In this document: piece by piece, positions 3,672 to 42,757 of the stretch
How positions within the stretch are numbered: the first letter of the stretch is position 1
Layout: every line of letters begins with the position of its first letter
DNA from: Candidatus Campbellbacteria bacterium
GTDB taxonomy: Bacteria > Patescibacteriota > Minisyncoccia > Phycocordibacterales > EsbW-18
Direction of reading: 5' to 3'
NCBI GenBank assembly: GCA_024653945.1
Contig: JANLIT010000004.1
Location: 13,281-77,280 of the forward strand
DNA: 64,000 nt
The notes under the pieces: generated by a model
Told to the model about the DNA's origin: nothing
Database searches by the model: none
Seen by the model: only the letters and a program-made list of their open reading frames with translations
Program-made: the position numbers and the translations under genes

Positions 3672-4754
3672 TTACACAATCAATAAATCTTTTGCGAGAA
3701 GAAGATAGTTGAAGTACGACAAGAAGACAATCAAAATAATGAGTGCGATGCCATGAGAAAATTCACGCGAGTGTCTTTTGTGTACTTGAAAGAGAACCAT
3801 CAACAATGTCACAAAAGCAAGTGCGAGTCCGATGATGATGTATCCCCAACGAACCACGGCTCGTGGTTGTGCTAAAAACTTCTCCCACGCATTTGTATAC
3901 GAAATTCGTTCAACGGGCATAATGACCTCCTCCTTAACTGAAGCTCCTGCCGTATTCGCATCTCGCGCTGGGGTAAACTCCTGTGCTAATGAAACATCTT
4001 GGGCCCCTTCTGGAGCTGGAGCCGGTACTTGGGTCACTGCTGTTGGGGTCACCTCCTGAACTACCACTGGCTCTGAAACGGTCTGCTGGGCTACAGCCAC
4101 GGTAGCTCCCTGTACCTCCTGTGTGCTCGCAACGGCAAGCGTAGGGGCAGTTTGAGCAATCACGGGGGCAACCGCGACTTGTGCTGGCGTACCAAAAAGC
4201 TGAACGACAAAAATGGTCTTCCTGTCCTTGTATTGCCCTGGGACAGCGGCAATACCTATTTCAGTAAAGGTCCCATTCATGATGTTTTCTCGGTGTCCTG
4301 GAGAGTTCATCCATGCTTGTTCAACGTCACCCGAGTCAACAAAGTTCACCGCCAAGTTTTCTCCCGCATTCACAAAATTGTATCCCGCTCGGTAAAACCA
4401 ATACCACGGATTGAGTCCGTCGGGACTTGTGTGTGCAAAATATTCGTTTTCCGCCATGTGCTCCGCCTTCATGCGTGCCGCCTTTTCCAAAATCGGACTC
4501 ACCGTCAAATCAGAAAGTCCTTCTGCTTCTCGGTCCTTGTTTGCAAGGTCAACAAGCACTCCGGGAACAACCGCTGCTGTAAATTCAATACTCGTACGAA
4601 TGAGAAGCGCTTGGAATACAGAAAAACCAAACGTGAGCACGAGAATCGTGGTAAGCGCAACAATACTTGCATCACGAACCATGTGTGGCTTGTGGTCGTT
4701 GCCTTCGTGCGGAATGAAGTAATCTTTAATATGTTTTCGCATAGCTGTTAGCAT
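3672..4754 (-). CDS. CAP/SCP (YkwD-like) domain membrane protein with a Thr/Val/Ala/Pro-rich linker
   Basis: CAP-domain motifs HTSPDG, GENLA, WMNSPGHRENIM; N- and C-terminal hydrophobic segments. Confidence 0.6.
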   Translation of the reverse strand: MLTAMRKHIKDYFIPHEGNDHKPHMVRDASIVALTTILVLTFGFSVFQALLIRTSIEFTAAVVPGVLVDLANKDREAEGLSDLTVSPILEKAARMKAEHMAENEYFAHTSPDGLNPWYWFYRAGYNFVNAGENLAVNFVDSGDVEQAWMNSPGHRENIMNGTFTEIGIAAVPGQYKDRKTIFVVQLFGTPAQVAVAPVIAQTAPTLAVASTQEVQGATVAVAQQTVSEPVVVQEVTPTAVTQVPAPAPEGAQDVSLAQEFTPARDANTAGASVKEEVIMPVERISYTNAWEKFLAQPRAVVRWGYIIIGLALAFVTLLMVLFQVHKRHSREFSHGIALIILIVFLSYFNYLLLAKDLLIV

Positions 4755-4763
4755 GAGTATATC

Positions 4764-5414
4764 CTACTTCGTATCGTCGCTATCAACAAGTGTCGCGTAG
4801 ACAACAAGTACTCGGTCGTATTCCTGTGTCTCTTGGCTATATGTTCCTGAGCAGGTAATAAGACGCAAACCTGGAAACGTTATATCGCCGTATACTTTTT
4901 CTGTCGGAAAATTGCTTCTATCGTACCGTTCAAGTACTGTTACACGAAATGTTGCTGTTGTTCCGTCTGCGCGATCTACATACACATAGTCGCCTTCTGT
5001 GAGTTGACCAAGAGATAAAAACACACCAGGGCCTTCATACGAGTCAACATGTCCGAGCACAACAGCAGGACCAATTTCACCAGGTGTCGGACCATAGGTG
5101 TACCATCCAACTTCTGTGTATCCTTTTGGAATTTCAATTTCACCATTTTCTTGCAGACCAAGAGGAACAAAATTAGTGTCCACAAATATATCTGGAATAC
5201 GCAAACGCATTGGGTCTGAATCTTCAAGCGGGCGCGCTGGATCAAAAATCGGTCGTGAAGATGTTGCAAGAGTTTCTTGAGAATTTTTTTGTGTCAAATA
5301 TGTGGTGACACCTCCTTGTGATGCTATAAGGATTCCAAAACCAACGACAAGCAACACAACGCCCACAGATATAAGTACTTTTTTTGTGTTCATTTCTGAA
5401 TTAAACAACATCAT
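4764..5414 (-). CDS. sortase family transpeptidase
   Basis: N-terminal TM anchor; His motif VVLGHVDS; catalytic TLxTC motif LRLITCSG; conserved downstream Arg. Confidence 0.75.
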   Translation of the reverse strand: MMLFNSEMNTKKVLISVGVVLLVVGFGILIASQGGVTTYLTQKNSQETLATSSRPIFDPARPLEDSDPMRLRIPDIFVDTNFVPLGLQENGEIEIPKGYTEVGWYTYGPTPGEIGPAVVLGHVDSYEGPGVFLSLGQLTEGDYVYVDRADGTTATFRVTVLERYDRSNFPTEKVYGDITFPGLRLITCSGTYSQETQEYDRVLVVYATLVDSDDTK

Positions 5415-5482
5415 ATTCGCTGTACATGGTAACTCTTTTTGCCCGTTGTGTCAACCCCATCGTGGGTTGGGGCCGTCTTAAT

Positions 5483-5559
5483 GCAAAACCCGCCCAAAAG
5501 GCGGGTTTTGCGCTTTTTTGTTTTCCGAAGCGAAGCTTCCCTTTTGGAAGCTTCGCTTC
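5483..5559 (-). terminator. tandem perfect hairpins downstream of the 605-aa surface-protein gene
   Basis: 12-bp stem GCAAAACCCGCC/GGCGGGTTTTGC and 14-bp stem GAAGCGAAGCTTCC/GGAAGCTTCGCTTC; the second hairpin recurs at 7488-7520. Confidence 0.6.
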
Positions 5560-5572
5560 TTGTTTTAAATCT

Positions 5573-7390
5573 TTAGTAAAGACACATCTTCAATCCTCCA
5601 AATCCTGTAGCAGGAGCACCGAGTGGAAGAATGGATGTTTGCTCACCCAAGACCTCACCAAGAACCTCTCCGCCACCATCTGTGGATGAGTTTCGACGAC
5701 GGAAGCCACTTCCTCCACCGTCGTCGTCATCGTCTCCGTTTGTATCATCACCACCAGTATCTTCGTGAGAATATGAGTTGGTGAATGTACATGTTACATC
5801 CTGATCTTCAGAGAGATACACAGTTACAGACCTCTCTGGTTTATTCGTGTCATACTCAGTTCCATAGTTACAACTAATGAGAGACAGGCTCCAATCAACA
5901 CCTGCATCTACTTCACTGATTGTGTACGTTCCTGAAGAAAGATTCGACAGTACCTCAGGTTCATCATTTGCAGAAAGATCAAACGATGATTCATCCCAGT
6001 AATTAAATGTAAATATGTGGGTTCCATCCGCACCTTCGTTTACCTCCTTGTCAATTGTGATTGAACCTCCGTTCTGATGATTACCAAAGTCCTTGAGCGA
6101 GAAGGTGCCGGGTGTTCCTTCTCCGTCGCCCTGAATCCGATGTCCAACAGTGCCGTTTGCGCAGGTAACCGTTCCGTCCGAAGCGGAAATCGGCGAGGTC
6201 TGTTCCCAACCGCTTTGGACCTCTTCGCAGACAACGTAATTAAGCTCTGGGTCTAAACTGTCGAAGGAGTAGTTGCCGTCGCCATCGGTCGTAGTCGTGT
6301 CCGCGGGCGTCTCTTCGATTACAGTCGTATCTTCGTCGATTGTGTACGGGAACAGGTTGATGGTCCATCCGTCGATGCCGGATTCGTCATCGCTCTGCCG
6401 ATCGCTGTTCACGTCGTTCCACTTCATGCCAGTAACAATGGATCGCGTGGTATTGGTAAAGGTACAAGTCACATCATCGCCACTTTCCACAGTGATTCGT
6501 TCGCCATCTTCAACGGCACTACCAGTGCTATCACCATCGTAAATACATTCTACGTCGGCTAATTGCCAGGCGCTCTGCTGGGTTTCCAGAACATCATATG
6601 TTCCAGGAGCGAGGGAGATGGGACTGGAAGTCGCGGTGTTATCTTCTGGGTCAGCGTCAGGTGTAAGATCAACCCCGTACAAGAACACGGTTGGATCTAT
6701 TCCCGTCACCAAAAATTCAAAGTTGGGGGTCCTTCTAGGGTCAACTGGCTCACCTTGCACGAGACCTTGAAAATCCCCAATCTTCACAATCGTAAGGGTT
6801 GCTGGAGGTATACATGTCTCGCTGTCCACAGTCAGTCTGAATATAACTCCTGCTGGATTACCCGGTCCGTCGGGTTCGTCGTTTGTTGCCTCAATCGTCA
6901 GCGTGTTCGTACCGCTCAAAAGAGAGCTGGCTGGGATAGGGTGTGTTCCAACAATCTGCCAATTGTCACCAGAGCCTACCGCATTGCCGTTGATGGTGAC
7001 AACGTAACTGTTGTCCGCGGTGATATCAAGAGAAGCTCCTGTTGGTGTTCCAACAATCTCAAACGTTCTCGTGAAGGTCAGCGTGCCGGCTGGGTGCGAG
7101 CCTGTGTCATCGGCAGGGACTTTGTCTGCATCCCAGATCCACGTAGCACCTGATGGAAGTGGATCATAGTCATCCCATACGGAGTGTGGAGTAACAGCAA
7201 CCGCATTACCACTACCTACTTGTGTTTCCGAATCACTGACAAGTGTCTGTGTGCTTGGGTCACACGCTGGTGCTACCGTTGCATTTGCGTTCAGTGGACT
7301 AAAAGAAAATACCCCAATAAAAAGAAGTGCGCCCAAAAGCCCCAGCCCAATAGTTCGATGTGTTTTATACGATGTAGTAATGAGAGCCAT
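5573..7390 (-). CDS. secreted adhesin-like surface protein (605 aa) with SdrD-B/Cna-B-like domains; paralog of the 1639-aa gene upstream
   Basis: Signal peptide MALITTSYKT...NANA; SdrD-B/Cna-B-like segments with Thr-Cys-Thr-Phe-Thr-Asn (TCTFTN) motifs and GMKWNDVNSDRQ; C-terminal 45 aa identical to the paralog (ends LPLGAPATGFGGLKMCLY). Confidence 0.7.
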   Translation of the reverse strand: MALITTSYKTHRTIGLGLLGALLFIGVFSFSPLNANATVAPACDPSTQTLVSDSETQVGSGNAVAVTPHSVWDDYDPLPSGATWIWDADKVPADDTGSHPAGTLTFTRTFEIVGTPTGASLDITADNSYVVTINGNAVGSGDNWQIVGTHPIPASSLLSGTNTLTIEATNDEPDGPGNPAGVIFRLTVDSETCIPPATLTIVKIGDFQGLVQGEPVDPRRTPNFEFLVTGIDPTVFLYGVDLTPDADPEDNTATSSPISLAPGTYDVLETQQSAWQLADVECIYDGDSTGSAVEDGERITVESGDDVTCTFTNTTRSIVTGMKWNDVNSDRQSDDESGIDGWTINLFPYTIDEDTTVIEETPADTTTTDGDGNYSFDSLDPELNYVVCEEVQSGWEQTSPISASDGTVTCANGTVGHRIQGDGEGTPGTFSLKDFGNHQNGGSITIDKEVNEGADGTHIFTFNYWDESSFDLSANDEPEVLSNLSSGTYTISEVDAGVDWSLSLISCNYGTEYDTNKPERSVTVYLSEDQDVTCTFTNSYSHEDTGGDDTNGDDDDDGGGSGFRRRNSSTDGGGEVLGEVLGEQTSILPLGAPATGFGGLKMCLY

Positions 7391-7487
7391 ATGTATATGA
7401 TTAGTGACCCACCTTTAGTGGCGAGCTCTGATTAATTAACAACTTTTATTAAAATACTTTTCCCGAGGGTTAAACCTCTGCTTAAAA

Positions 7488-7520
7488 GAAGCGAAGCTTC
7501 CCTTCTGGAAGCTTCGCTTC
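7488..7520 (-). terminator. hairpin downstream of the 1639-aa gene; duplicate of the hairpin at 5527-5559
   Basis: GAAGCGAAGCTTCC-CTTCT-GGAAGCTTCGCTTC perfect stem; a REP-like GAGGGTTAAACCTC lies next to it at 7465-7478. Confidence 0.55.
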
Positions 7521-7534
7521 TTGCTTTTAAATCT

Positions 7535-10500
7535 TTAGTAAAGACACATCTTCAATCCTCCAAAGCCTGTGTTTGGAGCTCCGAGTGGAAGAATGGATGT
7601 TTGTTCACCCAAAACCTCACCAAGAACCTCTCCGCCACCATCTGTGGATGAGTTTCGACGAAAACCTGAGCTTCCGCCACCATTACTTCCACCACCATCG
7701 TCTGTTGTAATTGTAGGATTTTGGTGGTTACCGAAGTCAATACCAACCAGAGAATCTCCTAGAGAAAGTTCCACTTCATGGCCGGCCCCTTCACCCTGAC
7801 AGAGCGTGTTGCCCGACGGGTATGTCTTCTCCCATCCGTCCTGGCCCGTCTCACAGACTATGTATGTGTCTGGAATAAGGTCGGAGAATGAGTAGTTTCC
7901 ATCAGCGTCGGTTTCCGTTGACACGATGAACCCGCCTTCACTATCGTTTGAAGCGTGGATCGCCCAGCCCTGAAGACCTGGTTCACCCGAATCCTTGATA
8001 CCATCAGCGTTAAGGTCATTCCACTTCATACCCGAGATTGAGCCTCTGTCATCATCGTTTGTAAAGACACACGTAATTGTTTCTCCGTTAGACAGAACAA
8101 TGTTGCCTGAATTAATATCGGTGTGTCCTGTGTCATCTGATGTACACGATACACTTTGAAGATTCCATCCAGGTAGAACTGTCTCAGTCACTGAATACGA
8201 GGTGCCAACATTAAGGTCACCACTGTTGTGTTCCTGATTTGCTTCAAGCAAGAAGTTATCAGTACTCCAACTTGGGTCAAATTCAAACGCAGTGTTTGTG
8301 TCGCTTACTTCTGTCACCTCCTTGCGAACGATAATTCGTTCGCCATCATCGTCATCGTCGTCTCCACTTGTTTGAGGGTCATAGGTGTTGGTGAATGTGC
8401 AGGTAACGTCTTCATCCTCACCAAGTGTAATTTCAACATCACCTTCACCTAGGTCGTGAAAAAAATCAACGTCGTCGCCACAATCAACATCCGTGACATA
8501 CCAATCGTCGTCGGTGCTAGTTAATTCAGTAACGATATAGCTTCCAGCTACAAGACCTGAGAATGTTTCTGGATCATTGCTTGCTGTAAGGAGTATGTCG
8601 TCATCGCCCCCATCGAGGTCAAATGAGAATGCTTCATCTTGACTTCCCCCCACAACAACCTTATCAATCGTAATAGAACCTCCGTCCTGGTGATTGCCGA
8701 AATCAAAACCATCTCGGTCATCAGTACCTGTGTCAATAATAAGTTGGTACCCAACACCATCATCACACGCTACAGCATATCCGTCAGAAATCTCTGGTGA
8801 TGTTTGATTCCAACCACTTCCTTGTGCTTCACACACTTTGTAATCGCCATAAGAAATATTGAACTGGTAGTAACCGTCTGAATTTGTTTCCATTGAGCCA
8901 ACGAGGACATCCTCGTCATCATAGATATTGATAGTCCAACCTTCAATTGTTGGTTCGTCGTAATCTTTGTATCCATCATTATCAAGATCGTTGTACTTCA
9001 CACCATTGATGTTTCCTTCACCACCTCCCTGTTGTCCGTCTCTCTCGTTGATAAGGTTGAAGGTGTACACACCCTGATCACTGTCGATATTCCAAACAGT
9101 ACCTCCTCCCGCACCACTGAAGTATGACCAGCCATCCTGCATAACTTCGTCCACAGTGTACTCATCAAGAGCAACATCATTGAAGGTTACACAACCTGTT
9201 TCATCAGTAATACCTGTGTACCCCTTGTAGATATCAACCGAGAGTGTTCCTGAGTTATCATCAAACCATCCTGGGTTCTGCACACCACTATCACCATCAA
9301 AGATGGTAAATGGTACTGGACCAGTAACGCTTGGTGTGAACCCTTGGAGGTATGCATGTGGAGTATTGTATGCACCCCAGTTGCCGAATCCAAGTCCACT
9401 AAAGTCGCCACCAATGTTGAGTTCAAGAATTTCTGTTGGGTACCCTGTGTATCCGTCCATCTGGGTTGCCCAAGAATCTATTGTAGAGTATTCAGAGTCA
9501 ACAAGGTTTGCACCACCTTGGTTACTCCACGTACCGTCTGCAAAAGCAAGGTATGATGTTCCCGCGTCAAGCGATGTTGAGTCAGTACCGTTGATATCCT
9601 CTGAATCAACAATCAAGTCCGATTCTACAGAATCACCCTTGAGGAAGACCGTCCATCCTGAAAGACCCTCGTTCTGGCCCACCTCATACTTACAAATCGT
9701 AACTTCATTGTGGTGTTCTGGTTCTTGTGGTGGCACACAGAAGAGCGCCACGTTGTCGAGGAACGTCCCCTCGGAGTTTGGAGTACCGAGGTCTTTAAAT
9801 GCGATGTCTGTTGAACTGTCTCCGGCTACAAATGAGTGTGCATACGTGTTCCATACCGTGTTTAGATTTGCACTTCCATCAAGACTCACCGCGTTAAGCA
9901 CGTTGCCATCTTGTGAGACTTCAAGATTGTTTTCTGAAGTTCCTGTTCCTGGTCGTGGAGAGAATGCGTATGAAAGTTGATACGTTCTTCCTGGAACCGT
10001 TGCAATAGCTTCTGAAATGATAGTTGATGCCTCTTCACCATTTGGACCACTTGCGTGACCGTTCCAATCAGAATCGAGCTCAGCGTACTGTTCAAGCTCA
10101 TATGGCAACCATCCGTTTACTCCACCGTGAAGTTCTGCATTTGCTGTAGCGGGAGCGCCTACAAATGCACCCGCCCATGCAACCGTCCAATCAAGACCTG
10201 AAAAACCTGAAGCAAAGATGTCCCATCCAGAACCATCGGTAACGTCTGGCAATTCAAATCCTCCGTTTGCAATAAGATTTTGTTCAGGATTACACTCGCG
10301 AGCGTTCACAAGGTTAAATGTTTGTGTGGGTTCATTTACTGTGACCTGACTTCCTGCATTAGTTGCATCATCTGCATCAGTAAGGTTTTCCCAACCCTCC
10401 TGCATAAATTCATCAAGAGTATATGTGCCATAAGGAACCGCTTCAAATGACACACAACCATCTTTATTCGTTGTTCCTGAATAGTCGTGTTCATCAGTAT

Positions 10501-12454
10501 CATCGGCCATAAATGTATCATCACCGACATACTCATCAAGCCACACCTCCCAATCTGAGAGAAGGTTTTCTGGGTCAACTGAGTTTTCATACTTACAAAT
10601 CGTTATGTCTGATGTGTCTTCAACTGGTGGTTGCTCACAAGATGTCTGCTCTTCACCGTTCACCACAAGTTGGTAGATACCTGCTGCGGGGTTCCTTTCA
10701 GGAAGCTGTTCGTATCCTGCCATACCAATGTTTTCAACCGTCAATTCAATAGTGTTCCATCCTGAATCAACATAACTGGTGACATCCGTAGGACCAGTAA
10801 CAGCTCCATAGTTAAATTCGGTTATGTTTGAGATAACAGGGTCACCGTTGATAGTAATCCAGTAGCGGTTATCTGCAGCAAGATTAAGAGTTGCGTCGTT
10901 TACAGGACCGTCAACAAAGAAATCTTTTGTAAATGTTTTTGCCACAGTTTGTGATCCGTCAACAACTTGATAGCTGTCCCAAATCCAAGTAGCTACACTG
11001 TTGAGTGCTGTGGTCCATGCACCGTGAATCCACGCGGCAACTGCATCACCGTTACCAACGCCTTCGTCACCCGCTTCACTCACCACCTCTACACGACACG
11101 CTTCTGCCACCAAGATAGGAACGTTCCACGCAACACAGTAGTAGTCTGTGTCCGGTGTGGTGCTAAGCCATTCCCAGTTATCATAGTGAAGTATGTCATC
11201 AGAACAATAGATTTCTGCTGAAACATTTTCTGTTGTGTTTTGACCTGTAAAAGGAATGTAATTTGCGTCAAAAAGTTCACGTACACGAAGCTGACTATCG
11301 TTTGAAATATCAACCACTGCAGTACCAGCAACAAATGCTGTCCATCCTGCTCCTGCTGAGCCTGGAGTATTGTCGTCAGGGTCTCCAGCGGTGCTGTAAC
11401 TCCATTCAAAGTCCCACGGAACGAGCTGACAGCCGTTATTTGGGTTTGCTGCGAGCCAGCGAGTTGCAGTATTTGATGTCACAGTTGTAAGTGTTGATGT
11501 ACCTGCGCCCCAGTTTGGAAGGTCACTTTCTTCATCACACTCAATTTTTTGTGCGTGAAGGGTAACAGTTTCTTCTGATGGAACGACGCCTTCGTTATAT
11601 GCAACACAGTGGGCAGTTCCGTCAGTGGGAACGAATGTAAGCTCTTGGTTATCGTTTGTACCAGAAGTATCTCCGTCACCTTCACAGTAAAGACCTAAAA
11701 CATCTTCGTTTGGAAGTTTGTTACCGGCGCCGTCGGTTTCAACAATAAGATAGCGTCCAGCTGATGGGAGATTGTCTATAGTGAGTATTCCGCTACCGTT
11801 TGTTGAACCATCTTCAATGAATGGTCCGTCTAATTCTGGGTAAGGACCATCGGTATCATCTGCTTCGCCGTGAACATACCCAAAAGTCTTGCCCGACTGC
11901 AAAGCACATGCTTCTGGTACATCTCCGCCTACACCATTATCGTCGCGATTTACGGTTGTACCGTCAGGACACACGTATTTTGTAATTTCAATTGAACCCG
12001 TTGGGTCATCACTGCCTATATCTTCACAAGCATCCCCGATATTATTCTGATTTCCGTCTACCTGATCTGGATTTACAGCATTTACACAGTTATCACATGC
12101 GTCTCCAACACCATCCCCATCTGCATCTTCTTGGTTAGGATTTGCAACCTCAGAACAATTATCTGAGTCATCGGGAATATCATCATCGTCTGTGTCTACT
12201 GGATCTGGTGCGGGACAAGCGCCACTTTGATCGGGCATAACATCTCCGTGGTCAAGATGTGTTTGAAGAGCGTTTGCATTAAAGGTTAACAAAGAGAAAT
12301 TGCCGTCGTCGTCTTTGTGACAAACAGTAACATCTCCTGCTGGTTGTGCATTTACTAACGAGCCAAAAGAAAACACTCCAACAACAAGGAGTGCGCCCAA
12401 AAGCCCCAACCCAATAGTTCGATATGTTTTATACGAGGTAGTAATGAAAGCCAT
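7535..12454 (-). CDS. giant secreted adhesin-like protein (1639 aa) with thrombospondin type-3-like Ca-binding repeats and several SdrD-B/Cna-B-like domains
   Basis: Signal peptide; D-rich DxDxDG/NC..NP.Q repeats (about aa 83-150); segments with TCTFTNT/TCVFTND motifs and GMKWNDLNADG; C-terminus identical to the 605-aa paralog. Confidence 0.75.
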   Translation of the reverse strand: MAFITTSYKTYRTIGLGLLGALLVVGVFSFGSLVNAQPAGDVTVCHKDDDGNFSLLTFNANALQTHLDHGDVMPDQSGACPAPDPVDTDDDDIPDDSDNCSEVANPNQEDADGDGVGDACDNCVNAVNPDQVDGNQNNIGDACEDIGSDDPTGSIEITKYVCPDGTTVNRDDNGVGGDVPEACALQSGKTFGYVHGEADDTDGPYPELDGPFIEDGSTNGSGILTIDNLPSAGRYLIVETDGAGNKLPNEDVLGLYCEGDGDTSGTNDNQELTFVPTDGTAHCVAYNEGVVPSEETVTLHAQKIECDEESDLPNWGAGTSTLTTVTSNTATRWLAANPNNGCQLVPWDFEWSYSTAGDPDDNTPGSAGAGWTAFVAGTAVVDISNDSQLRVRELFDANYIPFTGQNTTENVSAEIYCSDDILHYDNWEWLSTTPDTDYYCVAWNVPILVAEACRVEVVSEAGDEGVGNGDAVAAWIHGAWTTALNSVATWIWDSYQVVDGSQTVAKTFTKDFFVDGPVNDATLNLAADNRYWITINGDPVISNITEFNYGAVTGPTDVTSYVDSGWNTIELTVENIGMAGYEQLPERNPAAGIYQLVVNGEEQTSCEQPPVEDTSDITICKYENSVDPENLLSDWEVWLDEYVGDDTFMADDTDEHDYSGTTNKDGCVSFEAVPYGTYTLDEFMQEGWENLTDADDATNAGSQVTVNEPTQTFNLVNARECNPEQNLIANGGFELPDVTDGSGWDIFASGFSGLDWTVAWAGAFVGAPATANAELHGGVNGWLPYELEQYAELDSDWNGHASGPNGEEASTIISEAIATVPGRTYQLSYAFSPRPGTGTSENNLEVSQDGNVLNAVSLDGSANLNTVWNTYAHSFVAGDSSTDIAFKDLGTPNSEGTFLDNVALFCVPPQEPEHHNEVTICKYEVGQNEGLSGWTVFLKGDSVESDLIVDSEDINGTDSTSLDAGTSYLAFADGTWSNQGGANLVDSEYSTIDSWATQMDGYTGYPTEILELNIGGDFSGLGFGNWGAYNTPHAYLQGFTPSVTGPVPFTIFDGDSGVQNPGWFDDNSGTLSVDIYKGYTGITDETGCVTFNDVALDEYTVDEVMQDGWSYFSGAGGGTVWNIDSDQGVYTFNLINERDGQQGGGEGNINGVKYNDLDNDGYKDYDEPTIEGWTINIYDDEDVLVGSMETNSDGYYQFNISYGDYKVCEAQGSGWNQTSPEISDGYAVACDDGVGYQLIIDTGTDDRDGFDFGNHQDGGSITIDKVVVGGSQDEAFSFDLDGGDDDILLTASNDPETFSGLVAGSYIVTELTSTDDDWYVTDVDCGDDVDFFHDLGEGDVEITLGEDEDVTCTFTNTYDPQTSGDDDDDDGERIIVRKEVTEVSDTNTAFEFDPSWSTDNFLLEANQEHNSGDLNVGTSYSVTETVLPGWNLQSVSCTSDDTGHTDINSGNIVLSNGETITCVFTNDDDRGSISGMKWNDLNADGIKDSGEPGLQGWAIHASNDSEGGFIVSTETDADGNYSFSDLIPDTYIVCETGQDGWEKTYPSGNTLCQGEGAGHEVELSLGDSLVGIDFGNHQNPTITTDDGGGSNGGGSSGFRRNSSTDGGGEVLGEVLGEQTSILPLGAPNTGFGGLKMCLY

Positions 12455-12867: not shown

Positions 12868-12996
12868 TAAAGGACATTATAAAAGACATTTAAATATGGA
12901 TGCGATGTTTATATTTTTATAAAGGACATAAAGGACATTATCTCGCCCCACCTTCCACCACCAAAGGTTAAACCTTTGGGCGTTGCGTCCTTTATA
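12868..12996. promoter_or_regulatory. array of five TAAAGGACAT-like direct/inverted repeats in the intergenic region upstream of the giant adhesin gene
   Basis: taaaggacat at 12868, 12920 and 12929; taaaagacat at 12879; inverted copy gtcctttata at 12987. Confidence 0.35.
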
Positions 12997-13043
12997 AAAA
13001 TTTCATCCCTGTGGTGTAAATTACCGAACGAAGGTTTAACCTT
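12961..13043. repeat. two REP-like palindromes at the 5' side of the RAYT gene
   Basis: ccaaaggttaaacctttgg (12961-12979) and cgaaggtttaaccttcg (13027-13043). Confidence 0.65.
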
Positions 13044-13052
13044 CGTAAATCT

Positions 13053-13710
13053 TATGGGAAGAAAAGTGGCACTTGCTCTGGGTGAGTTTTACCATCTCTA
13101 TAACCGGGGCGTCGAAAAAAGAATAGTTTTCACTAATAAATATGACTATGATCGTTTTTTGTCCCTGATGTATCTATGCAATACCACAAAATACGTAGAT
13201 GCTCGAGAGCAAGGAGGTACGCTTCAAAAAGCCTACAGAACAAGGGGTGGCAATCGAATAGTTGATATCTGTACGTATTGCCTTATGCCAAACCATTTTC
13301 ACATTCTCATAAAGGAAATGGCCGAGGGTGGTGCCAGTAAATTTATGCAAAAACTAACCACAGGATACACAATGTACTTCAATAAACGATATAAACACAC
13401 CGGGGCACTTTTTCAAGGAACATACAAATCATCACACGCAAATACCGACCAATATCTTTCCTACCTTATTGCGTATATTCATCTCAATCCTGTCAAAATT
13501 ATTGAACCGAACTGGAAAAAAGACGGCATCCTGAATTTACAAAGAGCTGAAATGTACCTAAAAGAATACCCGCACTCAAGTTATCTCGACTATCTCGGCA
13601 AAACACGCGTTCATAATTGCATCATAAATAAGAGTGCTTTGCCTGAGTACTGTAGTACTCCACAAGATTTTATGGAAAGTGTTAAAACTTGGCTCTCCCC
13701 GAAGGTTTAA
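13053..13710 (+). CDS. REP-associated tyrosine transposase (IS200-like Y1 transposase, RAYT)
   Basis: HuH motif NHFHILI and catalytic-Tyr region YLIAYIHLNPV; flanked on both sides by REP palindromes; the ORF track starts at 12976, but the two 5' REPs lie inside that extension, so Met 13053 is preferred. Confidence 0.75.
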
Positions 13711-24508: not shown

Positions 24509-25300
24509 ATGACTTTTTGGTACCCAGTGCGATATACTAACCTTATGTCCGAGGAAAAAACCACTGAAAAAAAGATTTCCGTGCAAGATTTGCACCAAGC
24601 TGTGTCGTATATTAAAACACTCATTTTAGATGAGGAGCACTTACTTGATGATACCGAGCATCTTAAAAAGATTCTTTCACAAGCATCTGTTGGTTTTGAC
24701 GCAGAAAAAGATCATGACGTGATTGAAAAACTTCACTCCCAGCTCCACTACCTACGCACAATGGTGTACAAAGACGAGTTGACAGGAATTCTCAACAGAC
24801 GCGGTATTCATGAAGAATTTACCTCATTCTTTGAAGAGGCAAAATTTAGTGAAGAAAATAAGGGTAAAAGAACGGGAGTCACCATTCACGACTTCTCTAT
24901 TCTTTTTATTGATTTGGATAATTTCAAAAATATTAATGACACATTGGGACATGATGCGGGAGATGAAATACTAAAAAAAATTGGCTCTATACTCAAAGCC
25001 GATATGCGTGACACTGATGCAGTTGGTCGTTTTGGAGGTGAAGAGTTTGTTGTTGCCATGCTCGGTACAACAGAGGATGATGCCTATATAAAAGCTGAAA
25101 AAATAAGAGCGCACATTGAGGGAACACTTTGTCTTGAGCCTTCTGCGTGTGTAACTGCAAGTATTGGCGTCGCTTCACTCCACACCACAAAAGCAGAAAC
25201 ACTGGAGCGGTTGATAACCTTTGCCGACCAAGCTATGTACGAAGCAAAAACAAAAAGAAGTAAAAATAATGTCGTAAAATATAGTGAGTTGAAGAAATAA
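24509..25300 (+). CDS. GGDEF-domain diguanylate cyclase with N-terminal coiled coil
   Basis: LTGILNRRG, DLDNFKNINDTLGH and RFGGEEF (GGEEF) motifs; alternative start near 24545. Confidence 0.75.
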   Translation: MTFWYPVRYTNLMSEEKTTEKKISVQDLHQAVSYIKTLILDEEHLLDDTEHLKKILSQASVGFDAEKDHDVIEKLHSQLHYLRTMVYKDELTGILNRRGIHEEFTSFFEEAKFSEENKGKRTGVTIHDFSILFIDLDNFKNINDTLGHDAGDEILKKIGSILKADMRDTDAVGRFGGEEFVVAMLGTTEDDAYIKAEKIRAHIEGTLCLEPSACVTASIGVASLHTTKAETLERLITFADQAMYEAKTKRSKNNVVKYSELKK

Positions 25301-36708: not shown

Positions 36709-37560
36709 ATGGCTATCATCCGCACGGGCTTCGTGATGGAGCTCTTTGAGGCAGTCGCCGCCCGCTTGGGCGTCGACTGGTTGGTCGACAAGGGAAAGAA
36801 GTCAACCACCGAAACTCCATCAGCCACACAAGCAAGTGACCAGAAAGAAGACCGCATGGACTGGCACTTGCTCATCAACAACGACAGTGTATTGCCCTTG
36901 AAGAATCGGAAGATTCTTCATGAGGCAGTCGAGAAGTTGTCGCCAGACGACCGTGATCGTGCCGAGCAAGCTATCGGCAAGGTCCTCTCGGATGGGCGTG
37001 ATGGCTTCTTCAAGGCGCGGTCCGTTGTCACCATGACACAGAAGAGTTCCGAATCCCGTAAGGGGGACGACTCGAAAACCGTCAAGGAGACGACTGAGTC
37101 GTCGAAGTCAGGTGTGGCAAAGACAGTGAAAGAAACGACCGAGTCCCACAAAGGAGGCGACTCGAAGTCAGCACGTGAGCCAGTGACTCGGGAAGTATAT
37201 CCGAAAGGTTTTGAACCCGAGAGTCTCACCGTTGAGTTCCTCAGGAGCTCAACAAACTCACTAGAGGCGGCCGATCTGTTCCTCGCGATGCTTCTCCAGA
37301 AGTCTCGCACCCAGCAGGCACGAGAAGCTGCTAAGAAAGCGCTCGATCAGGTTGAGAAGTTTGTTGGGAACAAGCTCTGGTGGTTCTTCGGAACGTACCT
37401 TGCTCTTCTCATCATCTCTCTCGTCGGCTGGGTTGTCTGCTTCAGCGCAGTCATCACCAGCCCCGAAGCATTCTCCACGTTCATGTGGGGTCTCGTGTGG
37501 TTCGCCCTCTTCGTCGCTCTCTCGACGCCAATCGCAAAACTTCTACTTCCCAAAGAGTAA
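36709..37560 (+). CDS. hypothetical membrane protein with internal repeats (high-GC segment)
   Basis: Repeats DSKTVKETTESSKSG/VAKTVKETTESHKGG; two C-terminal TM helices; GC clearly above the window average. Confidence 0.45.
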   Translation: MAIIRTGFVMELFEAVAARLGVDWLVDKGKKSTTETPSATQASDQKEDRMDWHLLINNDSVLPLKNRKILHEAVEKLSPDDRDRAEQAIGKVLSDGRDGFFKARSVVTMTQKSSESRKGDDSKTVKETTESSKSGVAKTVKETTESHKGGDSKSAREPVTREVYPKGFEPESLTVEFLRSSTNSLEAADLFLAMLLQKSRTQQAREAAKKALDQVEKFVGNKLWWFFGTYLALLIISLVGWVVCFSAVITSPEAFSTFMWGLVWFALFVALSTPIAKLLLPKE

Positions 37561-37570
37561 GGAGTAGGTC

Positions 37571-38431
37571 ATGAACGAAAAAGATTTGCCGAAAATCATC
37601 GGCGCACTCCTCTCAGGAGTAGTCCTCTTTATCCTCATGACGTACATGGGGGTAACGAACGGTTTTCTGAAGATTCTTGTTGTTGTACTTCTCCTCCTGT
37701 CGTTTTTCAGCGACAGGTTTGGAAATGCTGGCAAGAAGTTGCGTACCATCTTCAGCATCGCGACGGCTGTTGTGTTTCTCCTTTCGTGGGGATACACTGC
37801 AGCAACTGCAACATGGGGAAAGCACGAGCTCCAGGTGGCCATGCCACGTGAAATCTTTAACTCGGAGAGTCCTCTGCCGAAAGCAGGAGAAAATCCGACT
37901 ACGGGTGCCACATCGAAATTCATCCGTCTTCCCGACGGAACGCTCAAGCCCGTTCCACTTTCGTGGAAACGCGACCAGCGAACGGGGTTGGAGATCCCAA
38001 ATCCTGGGACCGTCGAGTACTGGAACCAACTCAACGAGTACAACGCTCAGGAAGCCCGCAAGACCACCACTCCGGTAGAGTACCGGTTTTGCTGGAGCAA
38101 GCCGAAGGAGGTCAAAGGTTACCGTCCAGACCTCCGACAGAAGTGTCTCCCTATGCGAATCAACGCATGGAGCGGTGGGTACATCAACATCTCCGTCTTC
38201 CACCTCTCAGGAGGTGAAACGAAGGAGCAGGTGTACTCCATGAATCGGCCCGAAGGGACCGGCACATGGAAGAACACCGACGGAAGTGGCGGACACGGGG
38301 TGTGGGAAGAGCTTCCCCTCCCAGAAGGAACCAACACAAAGATGTTGGGAAGACTCAAAGATGAGACCCAGAAGGACGACGGGTGGTTCAGTTTTGTCAT
38401 CACCCCAAAGTCCACCACCCCAAGTTCATGA
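37571..38431 (+). CDS. hypothetical membrane-anchored protein (high-GC segment)
   Basis: N-terminal TM helices followed by a soluble domain; same GC-rich composition as the upstream gene. Confidence 0.45.
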   Translation: MNEKDLPKIIGALLSGVVLFILMTYMGVTNGFLKILVVVLLLLSFFSDRFGNAGKKLRTIFSIATAVVFLLSWGYTAATATWGKHELQVAMPREIFNSESPLPKAGENPTTGATSKFIRLPDGTLKPVPLSWKRDQRTGLEIPNPGTVEYWNQLNEYNAQEARKTTTPVEYRFCWSKPKEVKGYRPDLRQKCLPMRINAWSGGYINISVFHLSGGETKEQVYSMNRPEGTGTWKNTDGSGGHGVWEELPLPEGTNTKMLGRLKDETQKDDGWFSFVITPKSTTPSS

Positions 38432-38521
38432 TGTGCATAGTGACGTTGGTGGTCCTCACAGACCACCAACGTCGAAGGGCGCCCCTCGCGGGACGCCCTT
38501 TTCTTATACACTATCCATTTT

Positions 38522-38815
38522 TTATATTGGCGCTGTTACGGTTGGTGTAATCGCAGCTGGTGGATTTGGATTTGTAGCACCAATGGTACCTGTAATAATC
38601 TTAATGATCCCAAATACTGAAATCATAATGACCATCCCAAGAATTCCCCACAGCATATTCCGCCTCCCTTTTGCCTTACCATCATCACTTTCCGAATCAC
38701 GGATTGATTCAACAATTCCCCAGAAAAATATGACAAAAGCAACAGCAAAAAGAAGAAGGATAATCGGCTTAAGAATCACCGTATATCCAGTTGCAAGAAA
38801 AGTCTGGAGTGACAT
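38522..38815 (-). CDS. VirB2/TrbC-like T4SS pilin family small protein (1 of 6 tandem paralogs)
   Basis: About 100 aa; two hydrophobic helices separated by a short acidic/basic loop; Thr/Pro-rich tail. Confidence 0.5.
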   Translation of the reverse strand: MSLQTFLATGYTVILKPIILLLFAVAFVIFFWGIVESIRDSESDDGKAKGRRNMLWGILGMVIMISVFGIIKIITGTIGATNPNPPAAITPTVTAPI

Positions 38816-38827
38816 ACGGACTTACTT

Positions 38828-39172
38828 TTATTGAACGCCAGGTACTGGCAAATTACCACCTGTCGTAACTCCAACCTGAGCGGCAATGAAGTTAATAATA
38901 CCGACGATTGCAACCATCACGAAAAGCGCAATGATACCTCCAATCATAAGACCCTTGCCTTTCTTTCGAGCCTCATCATCATCTGAATTCATGATGAACT
39001 TAATCAACCCCCAGAAGAATACAAGGAGGGCCAAACCAATAACAATAGGCGTTGCGGTGTCAATCAATCTTCCAATTGCGGTAAGAATATTTGAAACACC
39101 ACCCAACTGTGCAAATGCAAACAATGGTGTGAATGCAGATGCGATAGCGAGACCTTGTAGAACTTTTTTCAT
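38828..39172 (-). CDS. VirB2/TrbC-like pilin family protein (2 of 6)
   Basis: Signal peptide ...LFAFAQ; two TM helices with loop NSDDDEARKKGKG. Confidence 0.55.
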   Translation of the reverse strand: MKKVLQGLAIASAFTPLFAFAQLGGVSNILTAIGRLIDTATPIVIGLALLVFFWGLIKFIMNSDDDEARKKGKGLMIGGIIALFVMVAIVGIINFIAAQVGVTTGGNLPVPGVQ

Positions 39173-39263
39173 ACGTAGTGTGTAATTACTTTTAATATAA
39201 TGCTAACAACTTAATACTATCACCAACATACCCGAGAAACTAGATACTCTGTCCCCAAAACCG

Positions 39264-39608
39264 TTACAGAGTTACCTTGGGAGGAGTGAACGGACCGTCT
39301 ACTGGGCTAAGACCGAGAGATGACCTAATAAATGCGACTAACCCAACGACTGAAAATAATACGAATAACGCTATCACCCCGTATATCATAATACTTTTCC
39401 CTTCCTTGGCCTTGTCCGCATCACCAGCACTGGTAAGATACTTTACAATTCCCCACATAAACACAAGAAGAGCGAGCGAGGCAATTATTGGGATAAGCCA
39501 ACCAACCCACACCCCCAAACTGGTTATAACACTCCCAACACTCTGTGCAAACACAAACAACGGCGAGAGTACAAGCACTGCAACAAGCGATGATATATAT
39601 CTACGCAT
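39264..39608 (-). CDS. VirB2/TrbC-like pilin family protein (3 of 6)
   Basis: Signal peptide ...VFAQS; loop TSAGDADKAKEGKS between two TM helices. Confidence 0.55.
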   Translation of the reverse strand: MRRYISSLVAVLVLSPLFVFAQSVGSVITSLGVWVGWLIPIIASLALLVFMWGIVKYLTSAGDADKAKEGKSIMIYGVIALFVLFSVVGLVAFIRSSLGLSPVDGPFTPPKVTL

Positions 39609-39628
39609 AATGATTAAATTAATGACAA

Positions 39629-39925
39629 TTAAAATATTGACCTATAAAGCAGTTGCACAATTCCCCAGAACGAAAAAAGAATAAAGAGTGCGAGGATTCC
39701 ATACGTCATAATACTTTTACCTTCTTGTGCTTTTGCTTCATCACCGGCATTGCGTATGTATTTTACAATACCCCATATAAAGAATAGCACCGCAAGCCCT
39801 GTGAGCAAAGCAAGAATGGGATTAAGAAGTCCTGTGAAGAGTCCAATCAAACCAGCCAAATCTGTAACGGCAAAAGAAACCAGTGGCGCAAAAACAAGTG
39901 TGAGAAGTAGCAGTATTTTTTTCAT
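39629..39925 (-). CDS. VirB2/TrbC-like pilin family protein (4 of 6)
   Basis: Signal peptide ...VSFAVT; loop RNAGDEAKAQEGKS; close paralog of copy 3. Confidence 0.55.
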   Translation of the reverse strand: MKKILLLLTLVFAPLVSFAVTDLAGLIGLFTGLLNPILALLTGLAVLFFIWGIVKYIRNAGDEAKAQEGKSIMTYGILALFILFSFWGIVQLLYRSIF

Positions 39926-40338
39926 ACAATATCTTGTTGGGTTGTTGGCGCATCTCTGTGGCCAAGTTGAGTAACGGTATTTTTAATAACATCTGAAAGA
40001 ATTTGTGCACCAAGAAGAACTGCCGCGCCAACAACCGTCCAGAGAAAAGTATTTTTTGCATCCGTAATTCCCTTTGGGTCCCCTCGCGCTTTCACAAACA
40101 AAAATCCTGAATAAATGAGGAAAAAGACGATGACAAAGTAACCAATATCTTTAACCGCTGTGACAATAATAGTGATGAGTGCAGGAATACTGGTTACATT
40201 ATTAAGTGGGTTCTCGATGGTACTACCTTCACCGCCCACTTGTGCAAAAATGACCATAGGAACCACAAAAACAAACAGTGCCAGAGCGAGAGACACAACC
40301 GCACGTATCTTTTTATTTTTTTGAAAAAATGTGTTCAT
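39922..40338 (-). CDS. VirB2/TrbC-like pilin family protein (5 of 6)
   Basis: Signal peptide ...IFAQV; two TM helices; loop KARGDPKGITDAKN. Confidence 0.5.
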   Translation of the reverse strand: MNTFFQKNKKIRAVVSLALALFVFVVPMVIFAQVGGEGSTIENPLNNVTSIPALITIIVTAVKDIGYFVIVFFLIYSGFLFVKARGDPKGITDAKNTFLWTVVGAAVLLGAQILSDVIKNTVTQLGHRDAPTTQQDIV

Positions 40339-40340
40339 AG

Positions 40341-40796
40341 TTATGGTTGTCTAAATGGATTTGCTGACCACCCCCTTCCTGTTAGCACATTTGTTATTAA
40401 ATCAATAATCAAAAATCCTGCAAGTGCAATAATAAGCCCAAAGAAGACATTTTTAAATATTTCATGAGCTTTTGATATCTTGCCCATATCCCCCGCCGCC
40501 GTGAGATACAAAATACCCGCCCACGCAAATAGTGCCGCCGAAATCGGAAGTGCAACCGTATAGAGGAGAAAGTTAATGACATTATTAACGAGAAGAACGA
40601 GGTCATTGAACGTGCAGGCGGTCTGGGGTGGTGGCCCACCACAAGGAACAATCGCTGCAAAAGATACCAGAGGAACGAGCACTACCGCCAAAGAAAGGCC
40701 GAAGGCCACCGTCTTTCGTTTCTGTTCTTGTGTCATATAGCCATTGTATGCCCTTATCAGAAAAAAGTTATCCCCACCCACATTTTTCGTCTTCAT
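40341..40796 (-). CDS. VirB2/TrbC-like pilin family protein (6 of 6)
   Basis: Signal peptide ...VSFAAIV; two TM helices; loop AAGDMGKISKAHE. Confidence 0.5.
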   Translation of the reverse strand: MKTKNVGGDNFFLIRAYNGYMTQEQKRKTVAFGLSLAVVLVPLVSFAAIVPCGGPPPQTACTFNDLVLLVNNVINFLLYTVALPISAALFAWAGILYLTAAGDMGKISKAHEIFKNVFFGLIIALAGFLIIDLITNVLTGRGWSANPFRQP

Positions 40797-40799
40797 TTG

Positions 40800-42095
40800 C
40801 TATTCTAATAGCTGGCTCATCCGTCCATTTGCCTGACTTACCGCCTGACTTATTGATACTCGCCCCGACGTTACATCTTCAATGAGTGTACTAAAGAGTG
40901 CGTTCGTTTGAACGGGGTCTGGGTCATAAAATCCTCTTGAGATAAGTGCATCATTATAAAATACTGCCTTGTATGGGTCGGTCGGCACTTGTGAGAGAGC
41001 GTCGCGACGTGCTGGCGGAAGTCCGAGTATGTCAAGAAAAAATGGAGACATCTCTTTACTTGTCAGAATTGTTGCGGCTTGAAATGCATTTGCCTTCGTT
41101 GGTGATTGGTTGAGAATTGCAATCGCATATATGGTGCCGAACGTACTTTTTTGAACAGCGTCACGAACCTGTGGCATGCGCGTCACATCAAAATTAAGAT
41201 TTGGGTTTTGTTCTCGTATACCAAAAAGCTCACCAGAAAAACCGAGGTACATAGCAAGATCACCCCTTACAAATAAATCCTTTGAGGCAATCAAGGAACG
41301 ATTCCATGAGTATGACGGCTTTACTGGATTTGCAAACTCAGTATAAAAGCGGAGGGCTGAATCTGCAGGAACTTCGGAAAGACCAAATCGTTCGCTGATA
41401 CTGCTCATCACGCCGTTTTCTGTGCGTATTGTAATCGGATTACCAGCCTGCATCATCATAAGTGCGAGAATCTCTTTTGCATGATTGACATTGCGATATT
41501 CTCCGAGCGCTATGGCACTTTGTAATACATTATGTGCTGTATCTGATTTTGTGAGCTTCGGCACAAGGGCTGTTATTTCTTCCCACAACAATGGTGGTTG
41601 GGCTATGCCCGCAGCATTAAAGAGTGTCCTGTTCCAATAGAGCACCATAGGGTCAACGGCAAGCGGAAAGGCAAGAATACCGTCCGTACCAACAAACAAC
41701 TCGGCACCCTCAATAAAAGTATCCCTAAATGTTCGCTCGGGAAGATTTTGAAAAGGAATCGGATAGATTTTCTTTTCGTGCTTGAGGAGTCGTTCTTGAG
41801 AAAGAATAATCGCATCGGGGCCTCGGTTTTCTGCAAGAGCTTCTGTTAGTTTTGCATCAAATGCTTCTTCAGAAAATTGTGTGTAGGTAATCGTGAGAAT
41901 ATTGTCATTTTTTTCATTAAAAAGTTGTACGGCTTTATCAATCATGTTTTTATCAAGCGTTCCCCACAAAACTGCCTGCGCAGGAACATCTCCCGAACCT
42001 GACGAGCCAAACTTACCATACGATGCCACCGCAATAACTCCGGCAATAATAAAAAATCCAAAAATAACGAGAATAATTGTTGGAAATGATTTCAT
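40800..42095 (-). CDS. membrane-anchored extracellular solute-binding protein (ABC transporter SBP family 1-like)
   Basis: N-terminal TM anchor; SBP_bac_1-like fold. Confidence 0.5.
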   Translation of the reverse strand: MKSFPTIILVIFGFFIIAGVIAVASYGKFGSSGSGDVPAQAVLWGTLDKNMIDKAVQLFNEKNDNILTITYTQFSEEAFDAKLTEALAENRGPDAIILSQERLLKHEKKIYPIPFQNLPERTFRDTFIEGAELFVGTDGILAFPLAVDPMVLYWNRTLFNAAGIAQPPLLWEEITALVPKLTKSDTAHNVLQSAIALGEYRNVNHAKEILALMMMQAGNPITIRTENGVMSSISERFGLSEVPADSALRFYTEFANPVKPSYSWNRSLIASKDLFVRGDLAMYLGFSGELFGIREQNPNLNFDVTRMPQVRDAVQKSTFGTIYAIAILNQSPTKANAFQAATILTSKEMSPFFLDILGLPPARRDALSQVPTDPYKAVFYNDALISRGFYDPDPVQTNALFSTLIEDVTSGRVSISQAVSQANGRMSQLLE

Positions 42096-42217: not shown

Positions 42218-42757
42218 CTACTTATTTTCTTTCGGCTTTCTTAAAAGCATACCGTAGTGGTGTGTTCCTGCATCAATGTCTTTTTCAAAAACAAACCCCG
42301 CACTTTCAGCGAGCGTTTGGGCGGTGTGACGTTTGAGCACAGATGTAGCATGAGGTCCCATACCTCCGTACGAATCACTCCAGTCAACAATGAGCGCCTT
42401 TCCATCAGCACGTAGAATACGGAACATCTCCTTTAAAAAACGCTCCTTGTGCTCTATTTGAAACAAGATATTGGTGGCCATAACTGCGTGCACTGATGCA
42501 TCCGCGAGTGTTGTTCCCCGCTCTTCTTCAAGATCAGTCCACATGGTGTGTACATTCAAAAGGCCTTCCTGCTGTGCTTCTTTGTGCACTTTTTGTATGA
42601 GCTCTTTCTGAAGATCGCACGCATACACTACCCCCGTTTCACCAACGTGGCGCGCAGCAAGAAACGTGAAATCCCCGGCACCAACGCCGAGGTCTGCAAC
42701 ATGCATTCCTTCACCGAGTTGAAACTGCTCAATAATTTTTTCAGGGTGTGCAAACAT
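42218..42757 (-). CDS. class I SAM-dependent methyltransferase (type 11-like)
   Basis: Motif I VADLGVGAGDF; ILRADGKALIVDW. Confidence 0.65.
   Translation of the reverse strand: MFAHPEKIIEQFQLGEGMHVADLGVGAGDFTFLAARHVGETGVVYACDLQKELIQKVHKEAQQEGLLNVHTMWTDLEEERGTTLADASVHAVMATNILFQIEHKERFLKEMFRILRADGKALIVDWSDSYGGMGPHATSVLKRHTAQTLAESAGFVFEKDIDAGTHHYGMLLRKPKENK

Follow-up and report, generated by a model that had tools for sequence, protein, structure and literature searches.

A tandem array of six small genes was analyzed in a 64,000-nucleotide (nt) stretch of the chromosome of a Candidatus Campbellbacteria bacterium (class Paceibacteria, Patescibacteria; assembly GCA_024653945.1, contig JANLIT010000004.1, positions 13,281 to 77,280), which is called the window here and from whose first letter all positions are counted. 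From sequence comparison, the six genes (38522-40796, minus strand, named P1 to P6 from 5' to 3') are predicted to encode pilin-like proteins of the VirB2/TrbC superfamily (Pfam family T4SS_pilin). Their products are likely to be built by a type IV secretion system (T4SS), encoded elsewhere in the genome, into one heteromeric host-contact structure, at which a binding protein encoded directly upstream would capture host-derived glycan. The array belongs to a block of methyltransferase, membrane-anchored MalE-like binding protein and pilin genes that is conserved across Paceibacteria, and its members represent four ancient pilin classes kept in a fixed order.

The six genes and the family of their products

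The six genes are listed below; the classes named there are described in a later section.

P1, 40341-40796, minus strand: open reading frame (ORF) of 151 amino acids (aa), likely start at 40736 giving 131 aa; predicted class-1 pilin-like protein; MCR4275039.1
P2, 39922-40338, minus strand: 138 aa; predicted class-2 (TrbC-like) pilin, signal peptide ending in ...VIFA before Q; MCR4275038.1
P3, 39629-39925, minus strand: 98 aa; predicted core-class pilin, ending right past helix 2; MCR4275037.1
P4, 39264-39608, minus strand: 114 aa; predicted core-class pilin, with loop AGDADKAKEGKS; MCR4275036.1
P5, 38828-39172, minus strand: 114 aa; predicted core-class pilin
P6, 38522-38815, minus strand: 97 aa; predicted leaderless pilin-like protein, last in the array

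Exact matches of the six proteins and of their upstream neighbor are present in GenBank (MCR4275034.1 to MCR4275040.1, from a Candidatus Campbellbacteria metagenome-assembled genome), where four of the six are labeled 'pilin', P2 is labeled 'TrbC/VirB2 family protein' and P6 'hypothetical protein NUW02_03285'. From 5' to 3', the binding-protein gene ends 3 nt before the P1 ORF, the gap between P1 and P2 is 2 nt, and P2 and P3 overlap by 4 nt; the following gaps are 20 nt (P3-P4), 91 nt (P4-P5, the sole long gap) and 12 nt (P5-P6). The start of P1 is most likely Met21 (40736), which is the start of the PGAP/GenBank call of 131 aa and the point at which the orthologues also begin. An earlier note on this DNA, made from the sequence alone, gave sizes of 97-151 aa, which is correct for the ORFs; with P1 corrected, the range becomes 97-138 aa.

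All six proteins have two long hydrophobic helices with a short acidic and lysine-rich loop between them, and the AlphaFold2 (AF2) model of P5 (71 homologues) is a helical hairpin (helices 26-61 and 66-100, helix pLDDT 82-92). P1 to P5 have Sec-type leaders ending in (S/V/A)FA. In P1, the signal peptide ends in ...VSFA before A and is followed by two conserved cysteines (IVPCGGPPPQTAC) ahead of the hairpin. P6 consists of the mature domain from its first residue and has no signal peptide, and there is no room for a leader because just 12 nt separate P5 and P6. The leaderless state recurs in 24/26 orthologues of P6, which aligns to mature P5 from residue 24 (hhalign 99.8%, E 1e-27). Of the features of VirB2-type pilins, the two-helix hairpin with a short polar loop was thus found in 6/6 proteins and a leader with the cleavage motif in 5/6. 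The earlier note had described six consecutive small genes on one strand, each encoding two helices around a short charged loop behind a signal peptide ending in FA(Q/V). The genes are real, with orthologues in dozens of genomes, and the helices and loop were recovered in every protein; the leader was confirmed for five of the six (that of P1 ending in FA before A), and P6 departs from the description. No class III leader or prepilin peptidase motif (G before F/M-x-x-x-E, of the G-F-T-L-I-E type) was seen in the six sequences, and the Sec-type leaders and two transmembrane (TM) helices do not agree with type IV pilins, in which one hydrophobic helix stands at the N-terminus.

Four of the six proteins exceed the Pfam gathering cut-off of 26.6 bits for PF18895 (T4SS_pilin): P2 (32.0 bits), P3 (45.2 bits), P4 (38.8 bits) and P5 (39.5 bits). 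P1 (21.9 bits) and P6 (23.0 bits) score below it. For PF04956 (TrbC/VirB2, cut-off 27.9 bits), P2 scores 34.1 bits over profile positions 1-94 of 98 and P1 15.3 bits, and P3 to P6 give no match. Among orthologues, PF18895 was matched at E<=1e-3 in 16/16 cases for P1, 24/25 for P6 and 26/26 for P2, and PF04956 was matched at the same threshold by 23/26 class-2 orthologues. Profile-profile comparison gave hhalign values of 97.3-99.8% among the classes (for P1 against the class 3-5 profile, 98.3%, E 1.3e-14). Because of these orthologue matches and the profile-profile comparison, P1 and P6 are counted as PF18895 members despite their scores below the cut-off. The VirB2/TrbC-like family proposed in the earlier note, by reference to episymbiotic bacteria of the Candidate Phyla Radiation, was in this way supported by the profile search, and arrays of such pilins have been described in Patescibacteria (PMC10633639, PMC12102498). 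In a search of 1.84 billion cluster representatives, the pilin family profile found 19,128 at E<=1e-3 and 7,374 at E<=1e-10; across all window ORFs of at least 60 aa, the pilin HMM found these six only.

Some of the relatives (among them P0242, P0243, P0251, P0352 and P0364) carry 2-7 pilin hairpin domains behind one N-terminal leader; they are 203-606 aa long, with 4-14 predicted TM helices and Gly/Ser/Pro-rich linkers. These fused relatives look genuine, not like stop-codon read-through, and such natural fusions suggest that different pilin domains act side by side.

A block conserved across Paceibacteria

Two further genes on the same strand precede the array:

40800-42095, minus strand: MalE-like solute-binding-protein homologue, 431 aa; MCR4275040.1, GenBank label 'extracellular solute-binding protein'
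42218-42757, minus strand: class I S-adenosylmethionine (SAM)-dependent methyltransferase, 179 aa; first gene of the block; Pfam Methyltransf_31/25/11

Related loci were collected with the binding protein as the anchor and one genome per species, which gave 36 loci (31-72% identity), and five more were obtained from exact-protein look-ups of pilin homologues, so that 41 related loci and the window make 42 places in total. The related loci include Kaiser-, Adler-, Niyogi-, Ryan-, Yonath- and Tagabacteria, among others. A class I methyltransferase of 175-245 aa is encoded directly upstream of the binding-protein gene in 42/42 places (window included), and a pilin array of 3-8 genes follows downstream on the same strand in 41/42; in the remaining one, the contig extends no further than the binding-protein gene. 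Arrays of six genes are the most frequent (13/31 complete arrays). The median gap is about 5 nt between the methyltransferase and binding-protein genes and 3 nt between the latter and the first pilin gene, with many overlaps of 4 nt and 1 nt; in the window, 122 nt lie between the first two genes. Upstream, gyrA was found in 35/39 places, and the block is intact where the gyrA context is lost (L025, L036 and L038). The DNA downstream of the array differs between loci, and frequent neighbors in the related loci are Mfd, ribosomal protein S1, IF-2, RbfA and ClpB. The methyltransferase, the anchored MalE-like binding protein and the pilins form a block conserved across Paceibacteria. No mention of the binding protein or the methyltransferase was found in PMC10633639, PMC12102498 or PMC12857230 or by full-text literature searches; both the conserved block and the fixed order of classes, one of them leaderless, are apparently unreported and represent modest additions.

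The presence of a membrane-anchored solute-binding protein beside the array, also claimed in the earlier note, agrees with the Pfam matches (SBP_bac_8, 72.8 bits; SBP_bac_1, 51.8 bits) and with the AF2 model (pLDDT 90.7, pTM 0.86), in which a TM helix (residues 3-24) and a disordered linker precede a two-lobed domain of the class I/II binding-protein fold. By sequence the protein is MalE-like only distantly. Its best Foldseek matches (E about 1e-22) are oligosaccharide binders, namely 5f7v, 5ci5, 4r9g, 4qsd, MalE and 7x0l. Besides MalE, these comprise Lmo0181 with cycloalternan, CbpB with cellotetraose, Atu4361 with sucrose or maltotriose, a mannotriose binder, and Tlet_1705. The family has at least 1,394 members, about 430 aa in length, and the source names among the matches listed are without exception Patescibacterial. 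No ABC permease or ATPase genes adjoin the binding-protein gene in the window, nor do such genes recur next to it in the 41 related loci, although a partner may be encoded elsewhere in the genome. For the methyltransferase, a generic SAM enzyme is predicted: the best relative in the PDB is 3dh0 (3.7e-19), itself of unknown function, and the protein reaches no specific NCBIfam cut-off, ArsM/UbiE-like models being matched far below theirs.

Position of the array relative to T4SS machinery

In Southlakia epibionticum, a T4SS cluster contains six predicted pilin genes (SEML1_0014-0019), all belonging to PF18895 and all essential by transposon sequencing (Wang et al., 2023, PMC10633639). A search of 3,035 Patescibacteria genomes with PF04956 and PF18895 revealed VirB2-like pilins in 1,948 VirB4-positive assemblies, with a pilin gene near virB4 in 1,135 of these, and 441 arrays of 2-11 pilin genes in 383 assemblies (identity mean 25%, maximum 54%; Quinonero-Coronel et al., 2025, PMC12102498). 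An array was defined there as 2-11 pilin genes of low identity in tandem or with one non-pilin gene between them. The six same-strand genes of the window fall within this definition, and the window array is a further case of the array kind already published for Patescibacteria.

Several observations weigh against assembly of these proteins by a T4SS. Pfam scans of 39 window ORFs returned no T4SS ATPase or channel gene, in agreement with the earlier note, which had seen no T4SS ATPase and no VirB4 or VirB6 gene; apart from the block, the ORFs are housekeeping genes and genes for surface proteins. A VirB4/VirD4-like gene is likewise absent within +/-10 kb in the 41 related loci (L039-L041 were covered through precomputed Pfam gene lists only), and in none of these places is the array encoded near a VirB4 ATPase and channel subunits. 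Among ORFs of at least 400 aa outside the shared housekeeping clusters, a Walker A motif was found in two only, an ABC protein (exporter) and an OLD-like ATPase; the other large neighbors in related loci are Mfd, ribosomal protein S1 and PKD or peptidoglycan-binding proteins, with no T4SS part among them. Of five block-bearing assemblies, three are listed with VirB4 and two, both incomplete drafts, without it. In favor of a T4SS, on the other hand, four Campbellbacteria assemblies in Table S1 of PMC12102498 carry VirB4.

The link to experimentally studied pilins is also thin. Neither the class-2 nor the core profile showed significant similarity by hhalign (E 0.08 and 0.11) to a Rhizobiales VirB2 profile, whose alignment is narrow and was built from homologues of the Agrobacterium T-pilin precursor. 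Because this comparison was not significant, it is the broad TrbC model of Pfam that ties the proteins to canonical pilins. In the sequence-profile search of the PDB, the core profile gave just a marginal match to TraM of pKM101 (8cw4, E 0.042), ranked under a spurious FliL match, and the class-2 profile gave no match; Foldseek of the hairpin model found nothing below E=1. Furthermore, a pilus has so far not been observed in any Patescibacterium, and a 2025 review speaks of an 'intriguing possibility' when it considers pili of these monoderms (PMC12857230).

These observations bear on the main alternative explanation, a T4SS-independent envelope device in which the binding protein and the two-helix proteins would form their own membrane complex or conduit, perhaps serving binding-protein-dependent uptake or signaling without VirB4, with small hairpin subunits as the membrane part. 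Such a device would account for an array that lies directly downstream of the binding-protein gene and never near VirB4 (42 places), for the lack of an adjacent ABC permease/ATPase gene, and for the two block-bearing drafts in which VirB4 was undetected; with 2-7 domains and 4-14 predicted TM helices, the fused relatives also resemble polytopic membrane proteins more than extractable pilins. However, the proteins are homologous to TrbC/VirB2, the same family is found inside the essential T4SS cluster of Saccharimonadia, and a pilin gene lies near virB4 in the 1,135 of 1,948 assemblies mentioned above. An array size varying from 3 to 8 fits poorly with a fixed transporter architecture, and the absence of VirB4 from drafts can reflect incompleteness. 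We consider a T4SS-independent device unlikely.

In Table S3 of PMC12102498, two GW2011 Campbellbacteria assemblies (GCA_000990745.1 and GCA_000990865.1) have three consecutive FATA_PrgF genes (indices 174-176 and 175-177), which are far from VirB4 (gene 619), and VirB2 is not listed for them; the three could belong to a pilin array whose genes were assigned to a different profile. A PrgF identity for the window pilins was dropped, since PrgF and PrgG of pCF10 show no similarity to the pilin profile.

Ordered pilin classes under purifying selection

When the pilins in related loci were assigned to P1-P6 by best hit, the order was collinear in 29/37 loci. Class 1 stands first and has the motif LVPCxG...C.F.DL just past the leader, with both cysteines invariant in 16/16 orthologues. 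Class 2 stands second, is TrbC-like and has an NPL motif, while classes 3-5 form a 'core' group with one to four copies per array. Class 6 is leaderless and last in most loci. Classes 1, 2 and 6 are sharply separated. The arrays thus consist of four ancient pilin classes in a fixed order across Paceibacteria. In two distant loci (L035:11268-13121 and L036:11751-13259), the first pilin with the Cys motif is fused to a long cysteine-rich C-terminal extension, which has a weak SLT_3 (lysozyme-like) match, and an fn3-domain protein is encoded between the fused pilin and the remaining array.

Pilin orthologues in L001 and L002, the loci closest to the window, share 63-88% identity with the window proteins. 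P5 is the best conserved (83-88%, vs 63-74% for the other five), and the values for the binding protein, methyltransferase and GyrA in the same comparison are 79-82%, 80-82% and 92%. Identity among the paralogs P1-P6 is far lower (mean 32%, range 18-49%, the closest pair being P3/P4 with 49%). For the L001/L002 pair, dN/dS of the six pilins is 0.08-0.17 (dS 0.46-0.83) and that of neighboring genes is 0.03-0.08. Because a dN/dS of 0.08-0.17 denotes purifying selection, the six genes are functional and constrained.

The divergence of the six sequences had been read in the earlier note as a sign of a variable pilus. In its full form, this explanation supposes interchangeable major pilins that shift antigenically, diversified against hosts or phages or for different host strains, an idea also raised in PMC12102498, where host-range versatility is suggested by analogy with Bartonella and Anaplasma. 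The low paralog identity, the change of core-class copy number from one to four between lineages and a pilin dN/dS 2-4 times that of the neighboring housekeeping genes could be understood in this way. Nevertheless, each slot has its own orthologue in the same order even where the binding protein is only 31-45% identical, orthologues are far closer to each other than paralogs are, and dN/dS is low in every slot. In addition, the classes differ by fixed features (the Cys pair, the TrbC-like N-terminal part, the missing leader), and no repeats or recombination cassettes were noticed. The inference in the earlier note from divergence to variability is accordingly not upheld, and a variable pilus seems to us quite improbable. 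The multiplicity of genes looks like a division of labor rather than a variable repertoire, to which the fused multi-domain relatives also point, and a fixed class set argues for one heteromeric structure over interchangeable variants.

That the genes encode unrelated hydrophobic proteins (holins, immunity proteins, type IV pilins or chance ORFs) with compositional Pfam matches is largely refuted and most improbable: small TM-rich proteins do draw weak matches to many hydrophobic families, several of which were seen here, and the fold search was uninformative, but scores above curated cut-offs are repeated in 24-26 orthologues per class, the matches are full-length and in register with the conserved loop included, a class III (prepilin peptidase) leader is absent and the genes are under purifying selection.

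Proposed assembly of a heteromeric structure

VirB2 hairpins lie in the membrane with the loop toward the cytoplasm and both ends outward. By analogy, the hairpins of P1-P6 would insert in the cytoplasmic membrane with the loop cytoplasmic and both ends outward. In the explanation that we prefer, the T4SS machinery (homologues of VirB4, VirB3, VirB6 and TrsD) would be encoded elsewhere in the genome, and we infer that it polymerizes P1-P6 after VirB4-driven extraction. The product would be one heteromeric surface filament or stalk, not a set of alternative pili, in which P5 is likely the major subunit and the other classes may be minor or adaptor subunits. This structure might be used at host-cell contact, a role already suggested for the six essential pilins of Southlakia epibionticum. 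The co-expressed binding protein of the window would recognize or capture host-derived oligosaccharide at the host interface.

Comparison with known systems

The array of S. epibionticum (SEML1_0014-0019) is the closest in form, since it also consists of six tandem same-strand genes of the PF18895 family, with PF04956 matched in some members. However, that array lies inside a T4SS cluster beside VirB4, PrgI and VirB6 homologues, whereas the arrays in the window and the 41 related loci are detached, and essentiality has been shown for the S. epibionticum array only. Like other published Patescibacterial arrays, including the 'Sec-secreted array' of Nanosynbacter lyticus TM7x, the window array is chromosomal with no relaxase nearby, and its low paralog identity (mean 32%, maximum 49%) is comparable to that of the arrays in PMC12102498 (25% and 54%). 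It follows a methyltransferase and a MalE-like binding protein, an association that was not found in PMC10633639 or PMC12102498.

With VirB2 of Agrobacterium, TrbC of RP4 and TraM of pKM101, the window proteins share the succession of leader, helix, short charged loop and helix, and P2 with 23/26 orthologues matches PF04956, next to the marginal profile match to TraM (8cw4). These major pilins belong to the conjugative and effector T4SS of diderms and are encoded by one gene, while here the host is a monoderm with six paralogs and no virB operon adjoins. Bartonella and Anaplasma phagocytophilum similarly have several divergent VirB2 paralogs encoded in a row (PMC12102498); a role in antigenic or host-range variation is ascribed to them, in contrast with the window paralogs, which are ancient, ordered and under purifying selection. 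Small two-helix proteins are also known from monoderm or wall-less conjugation in Mycoplasma integrative and conjugative elements (Mbov_0395/MMCAP2_0565 family, NCBIfam NF045849). P3, P5 and P6 match this model with E 1e-6 to 5e-6 (P3 28.1 bits, E 1.2e-6), but all scores (11-28 bits) lie below the cut-off of 40, which indicates resemblance and not membership.

Solute-binding-fold proteins can also be tied to T4SS regulation and not to an adjacent importer. Examples are the pCF10 protein PrgZ, which is of the OppA type and binds peptides, and the Agrobacterium protein ChvE, which binds monosaccharides and acts through VirA in signaling. The window protein is different from both in being MalE-like and membrane-anchored.

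Array boundaries and other features of the window

The DNA after P6 contains the following feature:

38432-38521, minus strand: two G+C-rich hairpins, with stems of 11 and 14 bp, in the 90 nt between P6 and the convergent plus-strand gene

The fold energy of this region is -55.1 kcal/mol (z-score -9.5 vs shuffles). Judged from the predicted fold, the hairpins probably mark the end of the operon and act as a terminator for both strands; they have no canonical U-tract, and the site was not reported by the consensus terminator scan. Within the array, a weak promoter-like site was found in the long gap before P5 (39223-39194), and in the promoter and terminator consensus scans sites were no commoner here than in shuffled sequence. 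Just past the array, convergent genes on the plus strand (36709-38431) encode a protein of 283 aa, in which a 'KTVKETTES' motif is repeated and TM helices lie at the C-terminus, and a membrane protein of 286 aa. The latter is kept in the closest relatives only (L001 and L003) and is therefore placed outside the conserved block. A VirB10 identity for the plus-strand ORF 36709-37560 was rejected as noise (16.9 bits vs a cut-off of 400).

Other surface proteins are encoded in two sortase loci on the minus strand. In the first (3672-12454), a sortase gene (4764-5414) is accompanied by genes for a membrane protein with a CAP domain and for two large SpaA/SdrD-B/Cna-B-type surface proteins of 605 and 1639 aa. 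The N-termini of these two are nearly identical, and both end in the same unusual tail (...ILPLGAP(N/A)TGFGGLKMCLY). In the second (55787-61165), the sortase gene (59290-59979) occurs with genes for a CARDB-domain membrane protein and for a protein of 1154 aa that contains six SpaA_2 repeats; an LPXTG-like motif was not seen at the C-terminus of the 1154-aa protein. Additionally, an IS200-like Y1 transposase ORF (12976-13710, plus strand) lies in a local dip in G+C content (0.40), and a GGDEF diguanylate cyclase domain protein is encoded at 24509-25300 (plus strand) in this very small genome. The 64 kb also contain eleven dispersed tRNA genes and no other Rfam match. The cumulative GC skew declines throughout without a turning point, so that the window includes neither the origin nor the terminus of replication.

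Implications for Patescibacteria

T4SS-type pilins in a monoderm lineage are a puzzle of Patescibacterial biology, being essential in the one species tested. The arrays described here offer three usable handles on this puzzle, namely a fixed class set, a leaderless member with multi-domain fusions, and an invariant, tightly spaced neighborhood. A further and rather doubtful idea is that the block is a dedicated host-interface device, in which the oligosaccharide-binding protein would be coupled to a heteromeric pilin-derived filament or conduit for host glycan recognition or uptake, genetically and perhaps mechanistically uncoupled from VirB4. If this were true, it would be the first concrete hint of what the Patescibacterial 'monoderm pilins' handle. 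The binding protein and the methyltransferase are soluble-domain proteins, which can be expressed and screened for ligands and substrates, and the published speculation that the pilus mediates uptake from the host (PMC12857230) would in this way become testable.

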